A DNA stretch of 6,743 bases from IMG/VR virus record IMGVR_UViG_2548876937_000011, positions 1-6,743 of that record, one strand, 5' to 3'. The notes under the pieces are model-generated. The model was not told where the DNA came from, did not search any database, and saw nothing but the letters and a program-made list of their open reading frames with translations. The position numbers and the translations under genes were made by a program. The stretch is from a virus. Lineage: Duplodnaviria > Heunggongvirae > Uroviricota > Caudoviricetes. Positions within the stretch are counted from its first letter, which is position 1. Every line of letters begins with the position of its first letter. Below are positions 1-6,743 of the stretch, one piece after another.

Positions 1-419
1 CTGGGGTCGAGTCCGAGCATTGCCCCCGTGCTGCTCATCTCGGACTCCTGTTCTTTCTTGGCGGTCAGCTCCGGGTTTTTGACCATACCGCCCATTGCAC
101 CGGTAATGGTGTTGCCCTGGCTGGCAATATTTTTCACGGCACGTCGCCAGAACTCATAGGCCACGCACCACCGCTCAAGCACCGCGAGGTCAGTCACGCA
201 CAGCAGGCCCTGACCGCAGAGTTCTTTGGTTGTCAGTTGCCACATGATCGTGGCGAGAGGGAGATCTTCTTCAGCGAACCACTCCGGTGGCTCAACACCT
301 TTGATGGGCGTAAAAACAGGTTCATCTTTATTCAGGGCTCGCTTGCCGGGGTTTCCGGCCAGCGCCTTGCGCGCCGTTGGCTTGGGGCGACGCCCGGAAC
401 GCCCCGCCGTTCCAGCCAT
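1..419 (-). CDS. Phage terminase small subunit, P27 family (partial; C-terminus lies beyond the left window edge)
   Basis: Minus-strand frame is open from an ATG at 419-417 to position 1; I hand-translated the start (MAGTAGRSGRRPKPTARKAL...) and the last 60 nt (...KKEQESEMSSTGAMLGLDP) and checked for in-frame stops. The N-terminal RPKPT...GNPGKR motif is what I recall for P27-family small terminases. AGGAG lies 8 nt upstream of the ATG (complement of about 427-431). Not in the ORF track because it runs off the edge. Confidence 0.8.
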   Translation of the reverse strand, partial: MAGTAGRSGRRPKPTARKALAGNPGKRALNKDEPVFTPIKGVEPPEWFAEEDLPLATIMWQLTTKELCGQGLLCVTDLAVLERWCVAYEFWRRAVKNIASQGNTITGAMGGMVKNPELTAKKEQESEMSSTGAMLGLDP

Positions 420-544
420 ATGCGGCACTCCTGGTTAAATTTCATTTTTCGCGGGTATAAAAAAACGATGGGGCGGGCAGTCCGGAAGACGTCAGGTCAC
501 AGAGATTTGACCCGCCCCTCCCCTCAGACAGTTGAGAGTTATTA
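420..544. other. HNH-TerS intergenic region with G/C-rich inverted repeat (GGGGCGGG at 470-477, CCCGCCCC at 511-518); candidate cos/packaging site
   Basis: The inverted 8-mers, 33 bp apart, are seen directly. Their position between an HNH gene and the small terminase gene matches where HK97-like phages place cos. GGGGCGGGCAG loosely resembles the G/C-rich lambda-type cohesive end, but it is not an exact match to any cos I can recall. Confidence 0.3.
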
Positions 545-895
545 TCACTTAAGCCGTTCACGGGCCGTCTTCGCCTTATGACACGGCCAGCACAGACTCT
601 GCAGATTACTGTCGGCATCAGTGCCGCCATGTGCTTTAGGGATGATGTGGTCAACGGTTTTCGCTTCACGCGCCACACCAGCACGCAGACATAACTGACA
701 CAGGCCTTTGTCACGTTGCAGCACACGCGCGCGGATAGCGTCCCACTTAGAACCATAACCGCGCTGATGACGGGATTGTCCTGACTTGTATTGCTTCCAG
801 CCTTCGCTTTTGTGGCTTTCGCAGTAGCCTGACGGGTCTGTCGTGGTATTACGGCAGCCGCGAACGCGGCAGGATTTTGGAGTTCGAGGGGGCAT
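545..895 (-). CDS. Phage-associated HNH endonuclease (packaging-associated)
   Basis: 116-aa ORF with ATG at 895-893 and AGGA upstream. Contains a Cys-rich N-terminus and the HNH core ...DHIIPKAHGG...NLQSLCWPCH... It lies immediately upstream of the terminase small subunit gene, as in HK97-like phages. Confidence 0.9.
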   Translation of the reverse strand: MPPRTPKSCRVRGCRNTTTDPSGYCESHKSEGWKQYKSGQSRHQRGYGSKWDAIRARVLQRDKGLCQLCLRAGVAREAKTVDHIIPKAHGGTDADSNLQSLCWPCHKAKTARERLK

Positions 896-921
896 AAATA
901 TATTCCTGTTCTTTGTCCGGA

Positions 922-1194
922 CTATTTGCCTGCTGCCAGCAAAGCGTTACGGCGCATATCGATACTTCGAATCCCCGCTTTGTCAATATTGCATTGTCCC
1001 AACGCCGAAAGCAGGCTCACATTCAGATCCAGACTGGCCCCATAGGTCAGCGGCTCGGGAATGACTGGCTGGGGAGTTTCAGTAGTCAGGCTTGCTGGCA
1101 ACGGTACCGCCGGAATCGGTACGTAAACTGTTCGCGTACTTCCGCAACCGGTCAGCAGCGGCAGCAGGCACATGACGTGAAGCACAATCATCAT
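922..1194 (-). CDS. Rz1-like o-spanin (outer-membrane lipoprotein), overlapping the 3' end of the Rz gene in the +1 frame
   Basis: Internal ATG at 1194-1192 (second ATG at 1191-1189) within the 922..1422 ORF gives MMIVLHVMCLLPLLTGC...: a hydrophobic signal peptide with lipobox LLTGC, followed by a proline-rich mature region. Start choice (1194 vs 1191) is uncertain. Confidence 0.6.
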   Translation of the reverse strand: MMIVLHVMCLLPLLTGCGSTRTVYVPIPAVPLPASLTTETPQPVIPEPLTYGASLDLNVSLLSALGQCNIDKAGIRSIDMRRNALLAAGK

Positions 1195-1471
1195 CCGCAA
1201 CAGCCACTTTGATATCTTCCTGGGTTCTCTGTGACTCCAGTGCGATCTGCTGTTTTGCATGCTGGTTAGCCTCCAGTACTGTATTGACGATTTGCAGTGA
1301 TTGCAGGATGTTATTGGTAATGGCAGTTGCCAATTTGGCATTTTGTACAGCCTCATCAGCACGTTTCTTTTCGTACTGATATTTGCTGTAGTAGTGGTTG
1401 GCTGACCAGATGAAAGAACCAATGACAGTAACGAAGAAAGCAGAGATAACCAGCTTATAGCTCAACTTCAT
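1079..1471 (-). CDS. Rz-like i-spanin (inner-membrane spanin subunit)
   Basis: 130-aa ORF with ATG at 1471-1469 that overlaps the 3' end of the endolysin gene by 17 nt. It has an N-terminal transmembrane helix (LVISAFFVTVIGSFIW) followed by a charged, coiled-coil-like periplasmic region, and sits directly after the endolysin. Only weak resemblance to lambda Rz as I recall it. Confidence 0.6.
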   Translation of the reverse strand: MKLSYKLVISAFFVTVIGSFIWSANHYYSKYQYEKKRADEAVQNAKLATAITNNILQSLQIVNTVLEANQHAKQQIALESQRTQEDIKVAVADDDCASRHVPAAAADRLRKYANSLRTDSGGTVASKPDY

Positions 1472-1931
1472 TTACCACCCCACCAGCCTCTTTAAACCGG
1501 GAAATCAGGTCGCCAATTTTATGTTCATACTGACCGTAACCTGCACCAGGTAAAGACGCCCAGATATTGCTGCAACGGTCGATTGCCTGACGAATATTGC
1601 CGCGATCAATCATCGGTAAAGCGCCACGCTCTTTAATCTGCTGTAATGCCACTGAGTCCTGGCTTCTGGGAGAGAAGTCTTTCAGCTCAAGCTGCTTGCG
1701 GTAAGCATCCCACCAACGTGAAAGAAGTTGATAACGGCCTGCAGCTGTTGATTTGAGTTTCGGGTTTAGCGTGACAAGTTTGCGAGGGTGATCGGAGTAA
1801 TCAGTGAAGAGTTCGCCACCGACAATAACGTCATAACCGTGGTTACGTGTCGGTTGTCGCCCGTTATCCGTTCCTTCTGACCATGCCACCATATCGAGGA
1901 AAGCTTTACGCTGGGAATTTAGTACCTGCAT
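1455..1931 (-). CDS. R: Endolysin, lambda R-type lytic transglycosylase
   Basis: 158 aa, the same length as lambda R, and very similar to it as I recall the sequence (..NQRKAFLDM.AWSEGTDNGRQ.TRNHGYDVIVGGELFTDYSDHPRKLVTLNPKLKST.AGRYQLLSRWWDAYRKQL.LKDFSP.SQD.VALQQIKERGALPMIDRG.IRQAIDRCSNIWASLPGAGYGQ.EHK...). ATG at 1931-1929 with AGGAG upstream. Confidence 0.9.
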   Translation of the reverse strand: MQVLNSQRKAFLDMVAWSEGTDNGRQPTRNHGYDVIVGGELFTDYSDHPRKLVTLNPKLKSTAAGRYQLLSRWWDAYRKQLELKDFSPRSQDSVALQQIKERGALPMIDRGNIRQAIDRCSNIWASLPGAGYGQYEHKIGDLISRFKEAGGVVNEVEL

Positions 1932-1934
1932 AAA

Positions 1935-2261
1935 TTACTCCTTAGAGCCACCAAACTTATTACCGATTACTCTCATTGCAGCCCCACGAATAGCATCGAC
2001 CCCGATCAGCCCAACGCCGCCACCAATGGCAACAGAAAGAGATTTAGGCCATCCGACATACTCAAGAGCGGATGCAAAAGTCAGTGTCAGGGCGCCACAG
2101 AGAAAAATCTCGAGCGTTTTTCGCTTCCAGCCACCACCACCGCCAAAATAGGCAATGCGCAAGCCAGCCATAACGATCGACATAATTACTGCGCCCAGTG
2201 GTGTGTCTCCACGCCACCAGCTCTGGAACAACTCCAGCCAGGTATTTGGGTTATGAGGCAT
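1935..2261 (-). CDS. Putative holin (three predicted TM helices), not lambda S-like
   Basis: 108-aa ORF whose stop (1937-1935) lies 3 nt before the endolysin start. Three hydrophobic segments (LGAVIMSIVMAGLRIAYF, LEIFLCGALTLTFASALEYVGW, LSVAIGGGVGLIGVDAI) and a charged C-terminal tail. Position and topology fit a class I holin; I do not recognise the sequence as lambda S. Confidence 0.65.
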   Translation of the reverse strand: MPHNPNTWLELFQSWWRGDTPLGAVIMSIVMAGLRIAYFGGGGGWKRKTLEIFLCGALTLTFASALEYVGWPKSLSVAIGGGVGLIGVDAIRGAAMRVIGNKFGGSKE

Positions 2262-2412
2262 TTGTAGTTATCTCTCACCTCGCTGAAACAGCAGGTGCAA
2301 ATTGAGGGAACATCATGTACCGCAAATCAGAAGCGGAAACGTCAAAGAAGCCGAACCAATGGATAACTGCGGAATAGGCCTAGACCAACGAATCCCCAGC
2401 CCCAGAAACGAC

Positions 2413-2435
2413 AAAACCCGCTCGATGGCGGGTTT
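2413..2435 (-). terminator. Rho-independent terminator (minus-strand orientation); candidate tR'-like late terminator upstream of the holin
   Basis: Perfect inverted repeat AAACCCGC (2414-2421) / GCGGGTTT (2428-2435) with 6-nt loop. On the minus-strand RNA the stem is followed by UUUUGUCGUUUCU. On the + strand the tail is weaker (UUUAAGCU). Confidence 0.5.
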
Positions 2436-2469
2436 AAGCTGTGTGGCGAAGTAACCACTCTTAACACGA

Positions 2470-2553
2470 TACAATTTTTTTTGCGTACGCGTTAGTTTTT
2501 TATTACTTTACTTTTTGATACTATCGGCGTGGTTACAAACAAGGAGAACAGCA
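2470..2553 (+). promoter_or_regulatory. AT-rich candidate promoter region and RBS for the + strand cassette (may also hold a divergent minus-strand late promoter)
   Basis: A/T tracts and several weak -35/-10-like hexamers (e.g. TTGCGT at 2481-2486; TACTTT/TATTAC/GATACT between 2501 and 2522), none with good spacing. Strong SD AAGGAG at 2541-2546, 7 nt before the ATG at 2554. Exact promoter elements could not be fixed by eye. Confidence 0.25.
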
Positions 2554-2817
2554 ATGAGTAACTACTTGGAAGTTAAGAGAAAAATTGGTCAATATGCATG
2601 TGTTACTCGGTGGGGTTTTCCCTGTGCCGAGCGTGAAATCACTTTGATACAAAATGACATTAACTCCGCGATTCAAAGTGGTAAAGTTATAAGTCGTAGC
2701 ATGCTCCAAGGCATTATCAGCCGTCATGTTCCCAATACCCATTTCTTAATCACCGACAGTGTGGACAACTCTGATCTTAACACTGCATTAAGAATGCTGG
2801 CGCCAAAACAAAAATGA
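2554..2817 (+). CDS. Hypothetical 87-aa protein, first gene of the AT-rich cassette (function unknown)
   Basis: ATG at 2554 preceded by AAGGAG. Stop TGA at 2815-2817 overlaps the ATG of the next gene (ATGA). The ORF-track version 2515..2817 begins at a TTG with no RBS. No recognisable motif. Confidence 0.7.
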   Translation: MSNYLEVKRKIGQYACVTRWGFPCAEREITLIQNDINSAIQSGKVISRSMLQGIISRHVPNTHFLITDSVDNSDLNTALRMLAPKQK

Positions 2818-3554
2818 ATAATGATGTGTTTCAGATCAGCCCCGACGAAGTAACGTCGGAGCTGATTTCTGCAAAGGAAAGATTTTTACGTGGTATTCAG
2901 CCATACTTGTGTAATGGTATATCAAACCTTGCTGACCTACATGAAATTCAGCAGCATGCTTCAAAATATTTTAATACCGCTGTTAAATTAGTTCAAAAAG
3001 TAGATTTATGTAAACTGGATGACAATAAGACATTTGCCATTTCCTTAGTTGGAGACTGTCGAGCGGTTCTGGAAACTTATTTAGAATACTACGACATGAT
3101 GGTGTCAAACATTAAATGCCTAGAAATTGATCCAAACAATATTGTACTGTATAGCAAAGATGGTCTATCAAACCTCCAAAGAATCATTAAAAAGTATTCA
3201 TCAAAAGATATTTACACACCTATTATTGCTGAATTTGAGTCTCGAAATTTGCCAATCGATGGATTTACTATAGGCACACCAATGAATTGGAAATTAATTG
3301 TCACTGCCATTATTGGATTTTTAAGTTTTTGTATTTTTTTATCAATTACGCTGCTAATCCCAGATTTAAATGAATTTCAAAAGAAAATGATTTTCTCTTT
3401 ATATTTCATGAGCGCGGCCGTTGGAATCTCGCCATTCATTGCAAATAATATAAAGGTCAATGGGAAGATGGCATTTCGTGGTTCGGAATTCAAAGTATCT
3501 GCTGTTGGTGGTTTAGCAGCATTGATTGTTTCTTTCATCATCCAAGTAATTTAG
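2814..3554 (+). CDS. Hypothetical 246-aa membrane protein (soluble N-terminal domain plus C-terminal TM helices); candidate effector of the cassette
   Basis: ATG at 2814 overlaps the upstream stop. About 170 N-terminal residues are hydrophilic, followed by hydrophobic segments WKLIVTAIIGFLSFCIFLSITLLIP, MIFSLYFMSAAVGISPFIANNI and VSAVGGLAALIVSFIIQVI at the extreme C-terminus. Low GC. No recognisable catalytic motif. Confidence 0.75.
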   Translation: MNNDVFQISPDEVTSELISAKERFLRGIQPYLCNGISNLADLHEIQQHASKYFNTAVKLVQKVDLCKLDDNKTFAISLVGDCRAVLETYLEYYDMMVSNIKCLEIDPNNIVLYSKDGLSNLQRIIKKYSSKDIYTPIIAEFESRNLPIDGFTIGTPMNWKLIVTAIIGFLSFCIFLSITLLIPDLNEFQKKMIFSLYFMSAAVGISPFIANNIKVNGKMAFRGSEFKVSAVGGLAALIVSFIIQVI

Positions 3555-3556
3555 CA

Positions 3557-3576
3557 AAGAGGCCCTAAGGCCTCTT
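3557..3576. terminator. GC-rich hairpin between the convergent cassette and Q genes; possible bidirectional terminator
   Basis: Perfect 8-bp stem AAGAGGCC / GGCCTCTT with 4-nt loop CTAA, between the cassette stop (3552-3554) and the Q stop (3583-3581). The U-tract is weak in both orientations, so termination efficiency is uncertain. Confidence 0.5.
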
Positions 3577-3580
3577 ATAA

Positions 3581-3922
3581 TCATAGCATTGATAGCACAC
3601 CACTAACAAAACCTAATGCTGTTTGCATATCTTTTCTAATTGTCCCATCAGAACACTTACGCTTCTTCGCAATGGTGCGTAATGAAATACCAATAACAAA
3701 GTGGGCAATAACTAACTCATATTCTTCTTGTTTATATTTACGTAACCGTGCGACACAACCGTCTATCATGATACCTTCATCATCATCACACTGGAGGCGA
3801 GACTTTTTACCGTGTGGTAAAAGCCCCTTGAAGCCTGCTGCTACCGGCTGCCAGTCCACACCACTGTTGTCTGCTGCAGCCCATGCACCCCAGCGGTCCA
3901 ATACTTCATACATATCACGCAT
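3581..3922 (-). CDS. Late-gene antitermination protein Q (QuuD-like, Phage_antitermQ family)
   Basis: The N-terminus MRDMYEVLDRWGAWAA...AAGFKGL...SR.QCDDD...I.GC.ARL.K matches what I recall of E. coli QuuD-type Q proteins. The track ORF starts at a GTG (3937); I prefer the ATG at 3922-3920, which has GGAG 8 nt upstream and aligns with the QuuD N-terminus. Confidence 0.8.
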   Translation of the reverse strand: MRDMYEVLDRWGAWAAADNSGVDWQPVAAGFKGLLPHGKKSRLQCDDDEGIMIDGCVARLRKYKQEEYELVIAHFVIGISLRTIAKKRKCSDGTIRKDMQTALGFVSGVLSML

Positions 3923-3940
3923 CAACTTACTCCACAAAAA

Positions 3941-4936
3941 TCAGGCCAGCACGCCTATTGCCAGCGCACGATCGATAAAACGAAATATCAGCTCCAGCTG
4001 GGAGCCATACTTCTCTTCAAATGCCACGGTATCCGCATGCAGCTCGTCGTGATGCTTTCTGCACAAAGGCAACACAAAGAGGTCATGCGCTTTTGTACCC
4101 ATTCCACCCTGACCGTGGCCTATCAGGTGGTGGGGATCATCAGCAGGCTTTCCACAACATGCACACGGCTGTGTCTTAACCCAGCGCGTGTACTTTTCAT
4201 TAACCCAGCGGCGGCGTTTTGGGCGTAACATAAAAGACTCCGGCGACTCCGGATCCACTTTCAGCGCCAGCACCTTTTTCGCTTTATCCTGGATGATGCT
4301 GGTGGCAGGAACCGAAGGCACAAGGTCACTTTCCCGAGTGACAGACGGCACAACAGGTTTCGGTAATCTCAGTGCCTTACGGGCTGCGCTTTCAGGTAAG
4401 GCATCCGCCAGGTCATTACGAATCAGCCACCAGCACAGTTCCGGCATTGTCACGGCATGGTTATCATCAAAACCGAGATCCCGACGGACTACAGACAACA
4501 CCCAGCGGGCACAGTTATCCGTTGCCATTGATTCCAGCCGTTCCGTGAACTGATCGCGCAGCTGGTTATCGCAGTGCCAGCACAGACGGATTGCGCCCGG
4601 AGCGTGTCGCATTGTTGTCATGTTCTCGCTGTGCCAGTCGGAATGAGGCCACTGGCAGCCTTTTTCACGAAGTAACCAGCTTTCAAGACATTCCACGCCA
4701 CCAGCACGACGGATCACTGCCTCATTGCGGAACACGGCCCGAACGGCAGGATCATCCGCCAGCGGTTGTGATGCCGCCGGAACGGCACCACTGGCGAAAG
4801 ATGAATAACGTTCCGGCTCAGGCTCCAGCAGGACACGTCCCTGCATAAACAGGGGCATCAGCTCTGAACCTGGCCTGAACAATACGATCCCCATACGCGG
4901 GGCAATTTCAGGGGTCAGTAGTGCTCTCACGGTCAC
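3941..4936 (-). CDS. DUF968-family prophage protein (YdfU-like) with C-terminal HNH-like Cys/His cluster
   Basis: 331-aa ORF. C-terminus has CACCGKPADDPHHLIGHGQGGMGTKAHDLFVLPLCRKHHDELH, which I recall as typical of DUF968 proteins found upstream of Q in E. coli lambdoid prophages. Start is uncertain: GTG at 4936 (1 nt after the upstream stop) or ATG at 4894; neither has a clear SD. Confidence 0.7.
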   Translation of the reverse strand: MTVRALLTPEIAPRMGIVLFRPGSELMPLFMQGRVLLEPEPERYSSFASGAVPAASQPLADDPAVRAVFRNEAVIRRAGGVECLESWLLREKGCQWPHSDWHSENMTTMRHAPGAIRLCWHCDNQLRDQFTERLESMATDNCARWVLSVVRRDLGFDDNHAVTMPELCWWLIRNDLADALPESAARKALRLPKPVVPSVTRESDLVPSVPATSIIQDKAKKVLALKVDPESPESFMLRPKRRRWVNEKYTRWVKTQPCACCGKPADDPHHLIGHGQGGMGTKAHDLFVLPLCRKHHDELHADTVAFEEKYGSQLELIFRFIDRALAIGVLA

Positions 4937-4937
4937 C

Positions 4938-5780
4938 TCAATGAACGGTATCGAGCAGCTTTAACAGCTCAGGGAATCGGGACTCGAAGAAATGCGGCTG
5001 CGTCTCGCGCGGATTTGCGGGACTGGTGATGTTCTTGCCGAACATGCAACCTTTCGCTGTCAGCGACCAGAATTTTTTGATGTTGTTAATCGCGGTACGG
5101 CTGTATCGTTCGCGTTGTTCAACGATCCCCAGCTTCGCCATCTGGTGATATGCCTGATTAGCCGTAAGGCGGATACCATACTGTTTCAGCAGTGCACTCA
5201 GCGACAGCGTAGGACGACTTGAGCCATCAGGCGCGTCAGCAGGAGCATCAATGGCATAGCGCGGTGCCAGATTCGGTAAGCCAACAGCCTCCTGGAGTTT
5301 CTGACAGGCACCAAGCACTGAAGAGTTAGACAGGTTTAATTCCCGGCGCATAAAGTCCAGCAGAATCACACCAGCCTGCATCTTGTCAGCAGCCTGTCCG
5401 GATAATTTTTCCGGTGCGCTGGTTACCATGTCGAAAGTACGGATCACCTTCAGATGGAATGACGGGCTGATCCACATTGCATAGGCATACACCAGTTCCT
5501 TGCAGACATACGTTCCTCCATTCCGCCCTTCTATTTTACTTACTGGTTTACTACCCAAATTTTGGGTAGTTTCATTGAATGAACCGACACCCAAATTTTG
5601 GGTATCGATCAATTCCTGAACCAGCTCAGTAATCTGTTGGCTGGAAAGAAACTTTCCCGGCTCCTTAGTTCTGGCATTTGCACCAGATGCAACAGCAGCC
5701 CGATGCAGATCGTTCAGGCTGTAACGCCCATAAGCATCACGACGAACTTCAATACCATCAATGACCATCAGATTATTCAT
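4938..5780 (-). CDS. KilA-N domain protein with C-terminal KilAC/ANT-like domain (phage antirepressor-like)
   Basis: N-terminus MNNLMVIDGIEVRRDAYGRYSLNDLHRAA...KFL has the KilA-N signature. The track ORF starts at GTG 5813; I prefer ATG 5780-5778, which is preceded by AAGAGGAGAAA with 8-nt spacing and does not overlap rusA. Confidence 0.8.
   Translation of the reverse strand: MNNLMVIDGIEVRRDAYGRYSLNDLHRAAVASGANARTKEPGKFLSSQQITELVQELIDTQNLGVGSFNETTQNLGSKPVSKIEGRNGGTYVCKELVYAYAMWISPSFHLKVIRTFDMVTSAPEKLSGQAADKMQAGVILLDFMRRELNLSNSSVLGACQKLQEAVGLPNLAPRYAIDAPADAPDGSSRPTLSLSALLKQYGIRLTANQAYHQMAKLGIVEQRERYSRTAINNIKKFWSLTAKGCMFGKNITSPANPRETQPHFFESRFPELLKLLDTVH
5553..5604. repeat. Two copies of a 16-nt near-palindrome ACCCAAATTTTGGGTA (5553-5568 and 5589-5604) inside the KilA-N coding sequence
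   Basis: Exact 16-nt direct repeat 36 bp apart, each copy itself an inverted repeat (ACCCAAA / TTTGGGT). At the protein level it produces a duplicated TQNLG peptide. Confidence 0.8.
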
Positions 5781-5799
5781 ACTTCGTTTCTCCTCTTGA

Positions 5800-6189
5800 T
5801 CAGGCGGCTGCACCCGCCGTTTTCTCGTACTTACTGATAGTGATCTCGACCTTCCCTTCCGGGATAACCGGTCCCCACTCCACCAGCATTCTTTTCACCT
5901 GACTGTCGTCTTCCCACACACCCGCGTGGGTCAGGGCGTCAAACAGCGCCTTGTTATAGTTGTCCAGATCGCGGATCCGGTTATCCGGAGGAAACAACAC
6001 GATCTCCACTGAAGCAGGTGCCGACGTTGGTTTCGGCAGACGACGTAACTGCTCAACTATTGCTGCACACGCCGCGCTCTGGAATTTGCGCCCCGCCGCG
6101 CTTATCAGGTTCTTACCTGCAAACGCCCCTTTGTTGGGGTGTCGCCAGTACGTGTTCACGCTGGGCGGAAAAGGCAGGATCAGCTTCAT
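5800..6189 (-). CDS. rusA: Holliday junction resolvase RusA
   Basis: 129-aa ORF with the RusA signature region ...RIRDLDNYNKALFDALTHAGVWEDDSQV... ATG at 6189-6187 with GGGAGA upstream. Its start overlaps the stop of the upstream methyltransferase gene (ATGA). Confidence 0.85.
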   Translation of the reverse strand: MKLILPFPPSVNTYWRHPNKGAFAGKNLISAAGRKFQSAACAAIVEQLRRLPKPTSAPASVEIVLFPPDNRIRDLDNYNKALFDALTHAGVWEDDSQVKRMLVEWGPVIPEGKVEITISKYEKTAGAAA

Positions 6190-6743
6190 GCCACTATCTC
6201 CCTGACCAGCCGTTCTGCCTGCTGGCGAACCTGCGCCAGAAACGCCTCACCACATGCCTCAAGTTCATCGCGCCCGATGTAGCTGATTGCCGGTCCCTTC
6301 CAGGTCTTGTCGAAAACAGCAATAGCACCAGCGAAGAAAGCGCCTGTCGGCACCTGCTTCTCGTCCTTCGGGATAAACCAGGCAGGCAGTTCAAAACCAA
6401 TACGCCCGCGAATAAAAGCAATATGATCTGCATCTTCCGGCCACCACACTTCGCTGGTGGCAGCTTTGATCAGGAAAACATAGCGTCCGCCCTTATCACG
6501 CATGGCACTGGCATGCTTCATGATGTAACGCATGCCGGTGATGTATTGCCCTTCATGCTGACTGGCGCGGCTGTATGGGGGATTACCAAAGGCAGCCCCT
6601 TTAAGCTCCGCAAGACGTTCTGACCAGTCATGCGCCAGCGCGTTGTCTTCCGCAGTGTAATAAGCGGCACATTTGGCGTTATCACCATCAGTGAACAGAT
6701 CCAGAACAAACGGGCCAAACAGGGTGTTAATTCCCCAGAAAAT
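6186..6743 (-). CDS. Phage N6-adenine DNA methyltransferase (Dam-like; partial, N-terminus beyond the right window edge)
   Basis: The minus-strand frame of the 6186..6533 ORF stays open to position 6743 (hand-translated, no stop). It reads ...DLFTDGDNAKCAAYYTAEDNALAHDWSERLAELKGAAFGNPPYSRASQHEGQYITGMRYIMKH... The NPPY tetrapeptide is the catalytic motif IV of N6-adenine methyltransferases. Confidence 0.75.
   Translation of the reverse strand: MFWGINTLFGPFVLDLFTDGDNAKCAAYYTAEDNALAHDWSERLAELKGAAFGNPPYSRASQHEGQYITGMRYIMKHASAMRDKGGRYVFLIKAATSEVWWPEDADHIAFIRGRIGFELPAWFIPKDEKQVPTGAFFAGAIAVFDKTWKGPAISYIGRDELEACGEAFLAQVRQQAERLVREIVA

Follow-up and report, generated by a model that had tools for sequence, protein, structure and literature searches.

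A two-gene cargo operon of a lambdoid Escherichia coli prophage, a candidate anti-phage module with a membrane-embedded output

What does a membrane protein do when its gene lies between the antiterminator gene Q and the holin gene of a prophage, on the plus strand and antisense to the phage late genes? The question is raised by a stretch of 6,743 nucleotides (nt) of viral DNA (Caudoviricetes; IMG/VR record IMGVR_UViG_2548876937_000011, positions 1 to 6,743), the whole of which is called the window below, and by an open reading frame (ORF) at 2814-3554 of this window that encodes a protein of 246 amino acids (aa). An earlier reading made from the letters alone (the sequence-only reading) had treated this gene as a single-gene unit and had suggested a membrane-acting defence or exclusion protein. 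The gene is actually the second of a two-gene operon, and the pair belongs to a widespread, unnamed family. We propose, with a probability of about one half, that the cassette is an anti-phage defence or exclusion module with a membrane-embedded output, a candidate that emerges from its genomic context.

The two genes of the cassette and their products

The cassette comprises the following features, in which the transmembrane (TM) helices were placed by a hydrophobicity scan, an AlphaFold2 model and the topology of the family:

2516-2524, plus strand: putative extended -10 promoter TGaTACTAT, proposed from reading the sequence, with no good -35
2541-2548, plus strand: ribosome-binding site AAGGAGAA, 5 nt ahead of ATG 2554
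2554-2817, plus strand: small partner gene for an 87-aa protein, with SVDNSDLNTALRML at residues 69-82 (SVDNSDL at nt 2758-2778)
2814-3554, plus strand: membrane-protein gene, ATG start, 246 codons, TAG stop at 3552-3554
2814-3290, plus strand: helical N-domain, predicted cytoplasmic (residues 1-159), with YFN at 52-54, DC at 81-82, QR at 122-123 and LPxDGF at 146-151
3291-3362, plus strand: TM helix 1 (residues 160-183)
3387-3443, plus strand: TM helix 2 (residues 192-210)
3495-3551, plus strand: TM helix 3 (residues 228-246), which runs to the C-terminus and contains AVGGLAALI, a conserved small-residue motif
3557-3576, no strand assigned: GC-rich hairpin AAGAGGCC-ctaa-GGCCTCTT, a perfect 8-bp stem with a 4-nt loop

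The ORF at 2814-3554 is a real, conserved gene under purifying selection, since RefSeq annotates its product in identical E. coli prophages (WP_024225790.1, 'hypothetical'), E. coli, Citrobacter and Klebsiella have full-length homologues with 56-92% identity, comparison with an E. coli allele of 93% identity gives a ratio of nonsynonymous to synonymous substitution rates (dN/dS) of 0.22, and 79 relatives share the same architecture. A spurious ORF is ruled out by this conservation. The protein contains three hydrophobic segments at residues ~160-183 (peak 2.49), 192-210 (1.76) and 228-246 (2.35; Kyte-Doolittle, 19-residue window). The AlphaFold2 model shows a confident helical bundle at residues 10-143 (predicted local distance difference test score, pLDDT, 85-92) and further helices at 159-181, 187-209 and 230-245. 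The soluble N-terminal part and the C-terminal multi-helix membrane module of the sequence-only reading are hence borne out by both methods, and the swapping of domains across the family, described below, strengthens the division. The border between them had been set too late, with the first ~170 residues taken as soluble and hydrophobic sequence from ~3324, and the hydrophobic region begins at about residue 160 (nt 3291). Where two to three helices had been expected, the last at the C-terminus, there are three, of which the last (228-246) indeed ends the protein.

The sequence-only reading had recognised no motif in this protein, and in agreement with this, Pfam (2025), NCBIfam (2026) and PADLOC (2023; PADLOC-DB v2.0.0) returned no informative domain for either cassette protein. 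The best PADLOC match of the window proteins was DndH, which at E 0.0032 and 12.8 bits is noise, and neither NCBIfam nor Pfam gave a SLATT match for the membrane protein. Two matches to PDB profiles were likewise rejected as noise, one of the N-domain to the hemerythrin-like protein DcrH (E 0.15) and one of the small protein to a cytochrome c555 construct (E 3.5e-4, no qualifying stretch). The membrane protein does match PHROG 5814 (E 2.7e-14; residues 11-219 against profile positions 8-208 of 230), a phage protein family without annotation, which thus adds no functional information.

The small gene, which RefSeq annotates with its start at ATG 2554, has homologues of its own and a dN/dS of 0.45, and the small partner is as conserved as the membrane protein. 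Its TGA stop and the ATG of the membrane-protein gene overlap as ATGA (2814-2817). On the evidence of this overlap, the ribosome-binding site, the single unit of low G+C content (GC) and a Klebsiella prophage in which both genes recur in this order in the corresponding slot, the two genes at 2554-3554 form one translationally coupled operon. The cassette is probably read from its own promoter and hence expressed in the lysogen. The hairpin at 3557-3576, between the convergent membrane-protein gene and Q, has a folding energy of -13.4 and -14.0 kcal/mol on the two strands. A U-tract is absent on both strands and the terminator scan did not report the hairpin, which may terminate transcription in both directions or serve as a stem that stabilises the transcript. 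No Rfam match and no tRNA was found in the window.

The DNSDL operon family and its variable C-terminus

Among 1.84 billion representatives searched with a profile, 79 relatives of the membrane protein were found at E<1e-3, the best at ~1e-17, most of them 245-270 aa long, matched over the full length and of the same architecture. Their N-domains have the motifs YFN, (A/G)(E/D)C, NMQRM and LPxxGF in common, followed by TM1, a PNPTxxQ loop, TM2 ending in PGF, a short basic loop and TM3 with AGGAxAxF. In the family alignments Q122, G150, F53, C82, L86, L146, P147 and F151 are invariant or nearly so. A second search with the family profile returned 196 clusters without a Pfam domain, all named 'hypothetical' but one. 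This exception, homologue P0198, bears the NCBI name 'SH2 domain-containing protein'; its sequence is that of a typical member, no SH2 domain was found in searching other members, and the label was rejected. PADLOC models gave only scattered single matches to 77 family members, among them a TIR-effector match (E 0.0016) that is noise, as is the single NCBIfam SLATT_4 match among these members (E 0.0028). For 32 small proteins PADLOC returned no matches. Protein accessions and topic searches of the literature likewise led to no description of a DNSDL/membrane-protein family.

The 32 genomic loci retrieved for the family are from Pseudomonas, Vibrio, Photobacterium, Methylobacter, Paraburkholderia, Sulfurovum, Mariprofundaceae, Acidobacteria, Planctomycetes and others, and pattern scans with a 12-sequence alignment placed the family in bacterial genome contigs and in none of the viral contigs. 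Taken together, the operon family is widespread, though unnamed, across Proteobacteria, Acidobacteria and Planctomycetes. Directly upstream of the membrane-protein gene, all but 4 of 30 loci (L008-L040) have paralogous ORFs of ~85 aa, one to three per locus and mostly two, whose products end in G-[IVA]-DNSDL-x-T-LL-x-L-A. The 87-aa protein of the window, with SVDNSDLNTALRML, aligns end to end with 31 such partners from distant loci, and the window cassette is therefore a reduced form, with two genes, of a conserved operon that mostly has three. In Pseudomonas mandelii three tandem DNSDL small genes stand ahead of the membrane-protein gene (L021:5219-6014).

A small gene tightly coupled to, and upstream of, a gene for a membrane protein is also the layout that would be expected of an addiction module resembling toxin-antitoxin systems, with a membrane toxin, a small antitoxin and a role in stabilising mobile elements. 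The residence of the operon on mobile elements and islands fits this explanation, as do RelE/HigB/HicA/VapB-type genes that we saw by eye near several of the distant loci. However, antitoxin genes are not usually present as the two or three small paralogues that most members have, and the large conserved cytosolic domain with its swappable output also speaks against it. We regard such a module as distinctly unlikely, while noting that toxin-antitoxin and defence functions are not mutually exclusive.

Several members depart from the common architecture beyond the N-domain. In variant P0090 a single TM helix precedes an alpha/beta hydrolase that resembles PGAP1/DUF676 and has a motif of the GxSxG type, in P0070 a DUF3298 (RsiV-like) domain follows three TM helices, and P0051, P0056 and P0072 have other added C-terminal domains. 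The DNSDL partner is present upstream in all variant loci fetched (P0090, P0070 and P0051). Since the variants keep the N-domain and the DNSDL partner yet differ in the C-terminal part, the small protein or proteins and the N-domain form a constant core, and the C-terminal part a swappable output. The P0090 locus has in addition a second DNSDL-type frame (…DGLDNSDLKMLLSLATEQAKRKN) directly upstream of the main gene, at L055:3797-4000, which is not called as a gene and may be a short or decaying paralogue.

The distribution of charged residues suggests how the protein is placed in the membrane. Over 56 members lysine and arginine residues together average 2.96 ahead of TM1, 0.45 for loop 1 and 2.18 for loop 2. 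By the positive-inside rule the predicted topology is therefore N-in and C-out, with the N-domain and loop 2 in the cytoplasm and loop 1 and the C-terminus outside it, which agrees with the extracytoplasmic type of the C-terminal domains in the long variants. The same orientation would suit a signalling module similar to anti-sigma systems, in which the N-domain sequesters the small proteins as regulators and frees them upon an envelope signal, the membrane part serving as anchor or sensor. The compact, helical small proteins and the extracytoplasmic-type C-terminal domains of some members, including the DUF3298/RsiV-like one, are in line with this possibility, which we nonetheless consider decidedly improbable.

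Genomic settings and the case for defence

The window spans the region for late regulation and lysis in an E. coli prophage of lambdoid type (phiP27/SfII-like), whose own genes lie on the minus strand:

545-895, minus strand: HNH endonuclease (Pfam)
1079-1471, minus strand: Rz-like DUF2570 protein (Pfam, under the curated cut-off)
1455-1931, minus strand: GH24 endolysin (RefSeq annotation)
1935-2261, minus strand: lambda-type holin (PF05106, E 1e-24)
2413-2494, minus strand: conserved late-region element, left border of the slot, with a terminator-like hairpin and T-run at 2435-2414
2495-3580, no strand assigned: cargo segment (moron), bounded by the conserved late-region element and the Q stop codon
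3581-3937, minus strand: antiterminator Q, right border of the slot (PF06530 Phage_antitermQ, E 3.4e-45)
3941-4936, minus strand: DUF968/HNH protein (Pfam)
4938-5813, minus strand: KilA-N protein (Pfam)
5800-6189, minus strand: RusA (Pfam)

The cargo segment has a GC of 36.2% compared to 52% in both flanks, with a trough of 31-40%. Several complete E. coli genomes contain prophages that match the stretch 2300-3600 at 100% identity, with the same RefSeq genes. Whereas the flanks of the slot occur in more than 1100 complete E. coli genomes, the cargo is found in only 21 of 5426. The left border is an element of 82 nt (2413-2494) common to SfII, SfIV, Stx2a, cdtI and phiP27 phages and to the Klebsiella prophage despite differing neighbours. 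Similarity to SfII, Stx2a_1447 and the Klebsiella prophage stops at ~2494, after which the sequence is cargo-specific. The hairpin within the element (2435-2414) was found by the terminator scan and has a folding energy of -13.3 kcal/mol. The element is probably the Q-dependent late promoter/terminator region (pR'/tR'), and the cargo would therefore sit between Q and the target site of Q. These features indicate that 2495-3580 is a horizontally acquired two-gene cargo operon of the prophage. The cargo is not flanked by inverted or direct repeats that would suggest a transposon, according to a repeat search around it.

Phages with the same RusA/KilA-N/DUF968/Q module as the window were compared at this slot, and several of them have other cargo there. 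In Shigella phage SfII (L043:2082-3696) two opposite-strand genes match PDC-M53A/B in PADLOC (E 2e-32 / 3e-54). In phiP27 (L003:2592-3821) one gene, L22, annotated as a GIY-YIG nuclease, matches PD-Lambda-1 (PADLOC, E 2e-89), and in Stx2a_1447 (L044:2271-3834; AP012536.1 13770-15333) an opposite-strand cargo of two genes encodes proteins of 343 and 179 aa, both 'hypothetical' and without a PADLOC match. The Klebsiella prophage has the same cassette in the same order and slot, with 57% identity, and a different lysis-gene type. The gap between Q and the putative late-promoter element thus behaves as a hotspot for defence and accessory genes in this lambdoid group.

The neighbourhood of the holin gene, ~290 bp away, and the predicted membrane product might point to a regulator of the prophage's own lysis, for instance an antiholin or a protein that sets lysis timing. 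The cassette lies, however, on the strand opposite to the lysis genes and upstream of the putative late promoter element, the Klebsiella copy accompanies a holin and an endolysin of another type, a homologue stands among the tail genes of a P2-like phage, and most homologues are outside phages. The membrane protein also lacks a Pfam holin match, the true holin being encoded at 1935-2261. Given strand, position and distribution, lysis regulation is highly improbable and the least likely of the four rival explanations that we considered.

Some features of the prophage stand apart from these questions. The KilA-N gene (4938-5813) is intact in the window, and an IS3-family element splits its counterpart in E. 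coli strain 720632 (L001:10639-12761). The prophage of this strain is otherwise near-identical and has in addition a GrlR-family regulator gene between the spanin and HNH genes, which the window is without. The spanin pair of the window (922-1422 / 1079-1471, minus strand) is embedded, with an Rz1/LysC-like frame inside the Rz-like DUF2570 gene. RefSeq annotates this frame in the same way in related prophages, and the embedded layout is ordinary for lambdoid phages.

A second kind of location was found in the P2-like phage P2_DC1, the sole other phage genome recovered by tblastn (E<=1e-3; two records). In its pair, DSVDNSDL occurs in a small protein of 85 aa, and the membrane protein, of 233 aa, is 28% identical to that of the window and has all family motifs. 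Both genes are read from the opposite strand and are flanked by the tail-fibre-assembly gene and by FI, the gene for the sheath, at a position that we take to be the Z/fun locus on the P2 map. Defence systems of P2 are situated at Z/fun and at a hotspot among the tail genes (PMC13586616).

Chromosomal copies provide the third kind of location. Within two genes of the operon are a PDC-S20 KAP NTPase (L009, E 5e-154), Olokun OloA and OloB (L014), a PifA-like protein (L022) and a type IV retron reverse transcriptase (L029). At L016, L017 and L020 Gabija GajA and then a UvrD-like gene stand beside the operon, and L056 has a more distant such pair. The summed neighbour scan also gave gop-beta-cII-like, PD-Lambda-1 and RmrA matches, and the borders of the islands with chromosomal copies contain four integrases and ordinary housekeeping genes. 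Since no further gene is consistently linked to the chromosomal operons, the operon looks self-contained.

The agreement of these three kinds of location, namely the lambdoid cargo slot, the Z/fun slot of P2 and the chromosomal defence islands, together with the foreign base composition, the sparse distribution and the architecture of a constant core and a variable output, is the reason for favouring a defence or exclusion module. In the mechanism that we propose, the small DNSDL protein or proteins would bind the cytosolic N-domain as a constant sensing or regulatory core, and an infection cue would alter this complex. The membrane-embedded part, with its conserved Gly/Pro-rich helices, would then permeabilise or gate the inner membrane. 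The lipase-like domain that replaces TM2-3 in P0090 is compatible with a membrane-directed output, and we infer that the 246-aa protein itself may depolarise the membrane. The suggestion of defence or exclusion in the sequence-only reading is supported by the genomic context only, and not by any likeness in sequence or fold to known abortive-infection or exclusion proteins.

Non-abortive superinfection exclusion, in which the membrane protein and the small protein block DNA entry or receptor use at the inner membrane and the cell survives, as with HK97 gp15, P22 SieA and T4 Imm, would account for a prophage cargo on its own strand with a predicted inner-membrane product. It would also account for the homologous cassette in the Z/fun slot, since Z/fun of P2 blocks T5. 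On the other hand, the pattern scans place the wider family in bacterial rather than viral contigs, and it occurs there beside intracellular defence systems. Paralogous cytosolic partners and, in one variant, a hydrolase in place of TM2-3 are untypical of exclusion proteins, so that we judge this explanation unlikely.

Several points weigh against a defence or exclusion module. In sequence and in fold, both proteins are unlike any defence, exclusion, toxin or holin protein that has been characterised, none of the invariant residues of the N-domain is of a catalytic type, and we infer the function of the cassette from context alone. The neighbour evidence is qualitative and comes with no formal enrichment statistic, and the three Pseudomonas Gabija loci are mutually related. 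The consensus promoter scan did not call the cassette promoter at 2516-2524. When lysogens of four P2-like phages including P2_DC1 were challenged with eight phages, protection was reported only for AC1, a phage other than P2_DC1 (PMC9122126), a weak hint against broad-spectrum protection.

A still wider proposal, which we make tentatively and at somewhat less than even odds, is that the cassette founds an undescribed defence system across phyla, with a novel sensing core and interchangeable membrane-targeting outputs, that the unrelated lambdoid and P2-like lineages of temperate phages each captured in a cargo hotspot. If the cassette is protective, it would represent a new defence family without annotated domains that extends from Enterobacteria to Planctomycetes, with a modular output and a sensing core (small protein and helical domain) unlike anything solved. 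The gap between Q and the putative late-promoter element is also marked as a defence and cargo hotspot comparable to those of P2 and P4 and could be mined, for example for the Stx2a_1447 cargo. With a size of ~1.1 kb and probably its own promoter, the cassette is cheap to test.

Comparison with known systems

Alternative occupants of the same slot, between Q and the late-region element, are PD-Lambda-1 and PDC-M53, whose proteins are unrelated to those of the cassette. PD-Lambda-1 is an experimentally selected defence system (Vassallo et al. 2022, PMC9519451), while PDC-M53 is a PADLOC candidate. At the Z/fun position of P2-like phages the cassette of P2_DC1 is homologous, whereas the canonical Z/fun gene of P2 is not detectably related, since tblastn (E<=1e-3) found a single phage genome.

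HK97 gp15, P22 SieA and T4 Imm are inner-membrane morons that act against incoming phage and, like the membrane protein of the cassette, are phage- or prophage-borne inner-membrane proteins. They are, however, single-gene and phage-restricted, while the cassette family is multi-component and mostly chromosomal, and no sequence similarity was found between the cassette proteins and HK97 gp15, SieA or Imm.

A small multi-TM module as the apparent output is shared with the short TM effectors of CBASS, Pycsar, retron and Rst systems. Examples are a system of HAD-hydrolase and TM protein and one of RT-nitrilase and TM protein (Rousset et al. 2022, PMC9122126). The cassette family resembles such systems in that it swaps TM and hydrolase outputs and sits in P2 and lambdoid hotspots. 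It differs from them in being without a cyclase, reverse transcriptase, TIR or nucleotide-sensing domain and in having no PADLOC effector match.

A parallel in organisation is provided by RexAB of lambda, a two-gene prophage module of a soluble and a small polytopic inner-membrane protein with presumed expression in the lysogen. The proposed logic of a sensor and a membrane output is common to both. RexB crosses the membrane with four TM helices and is without a large cytosolic domain, and RexA comprises ~279 aa, whereas the soluble partner of the cassette has only 87 aa and its membrane protein itself bears a cytosolic domain of 160 aa. No RexAB match at E<=1 was obtained for the cassette proteins in the PADLOC library, which presumably includes RexA and RexB models. 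The proteins of the cassette are of no family described in Pfam (2025), NCBIfam (2026) or PADLOC (2023), while the kind of system, a prophage cargo that combines a soluble partner with a membrane output, is a familiar one, of which RexAB is the classic example.

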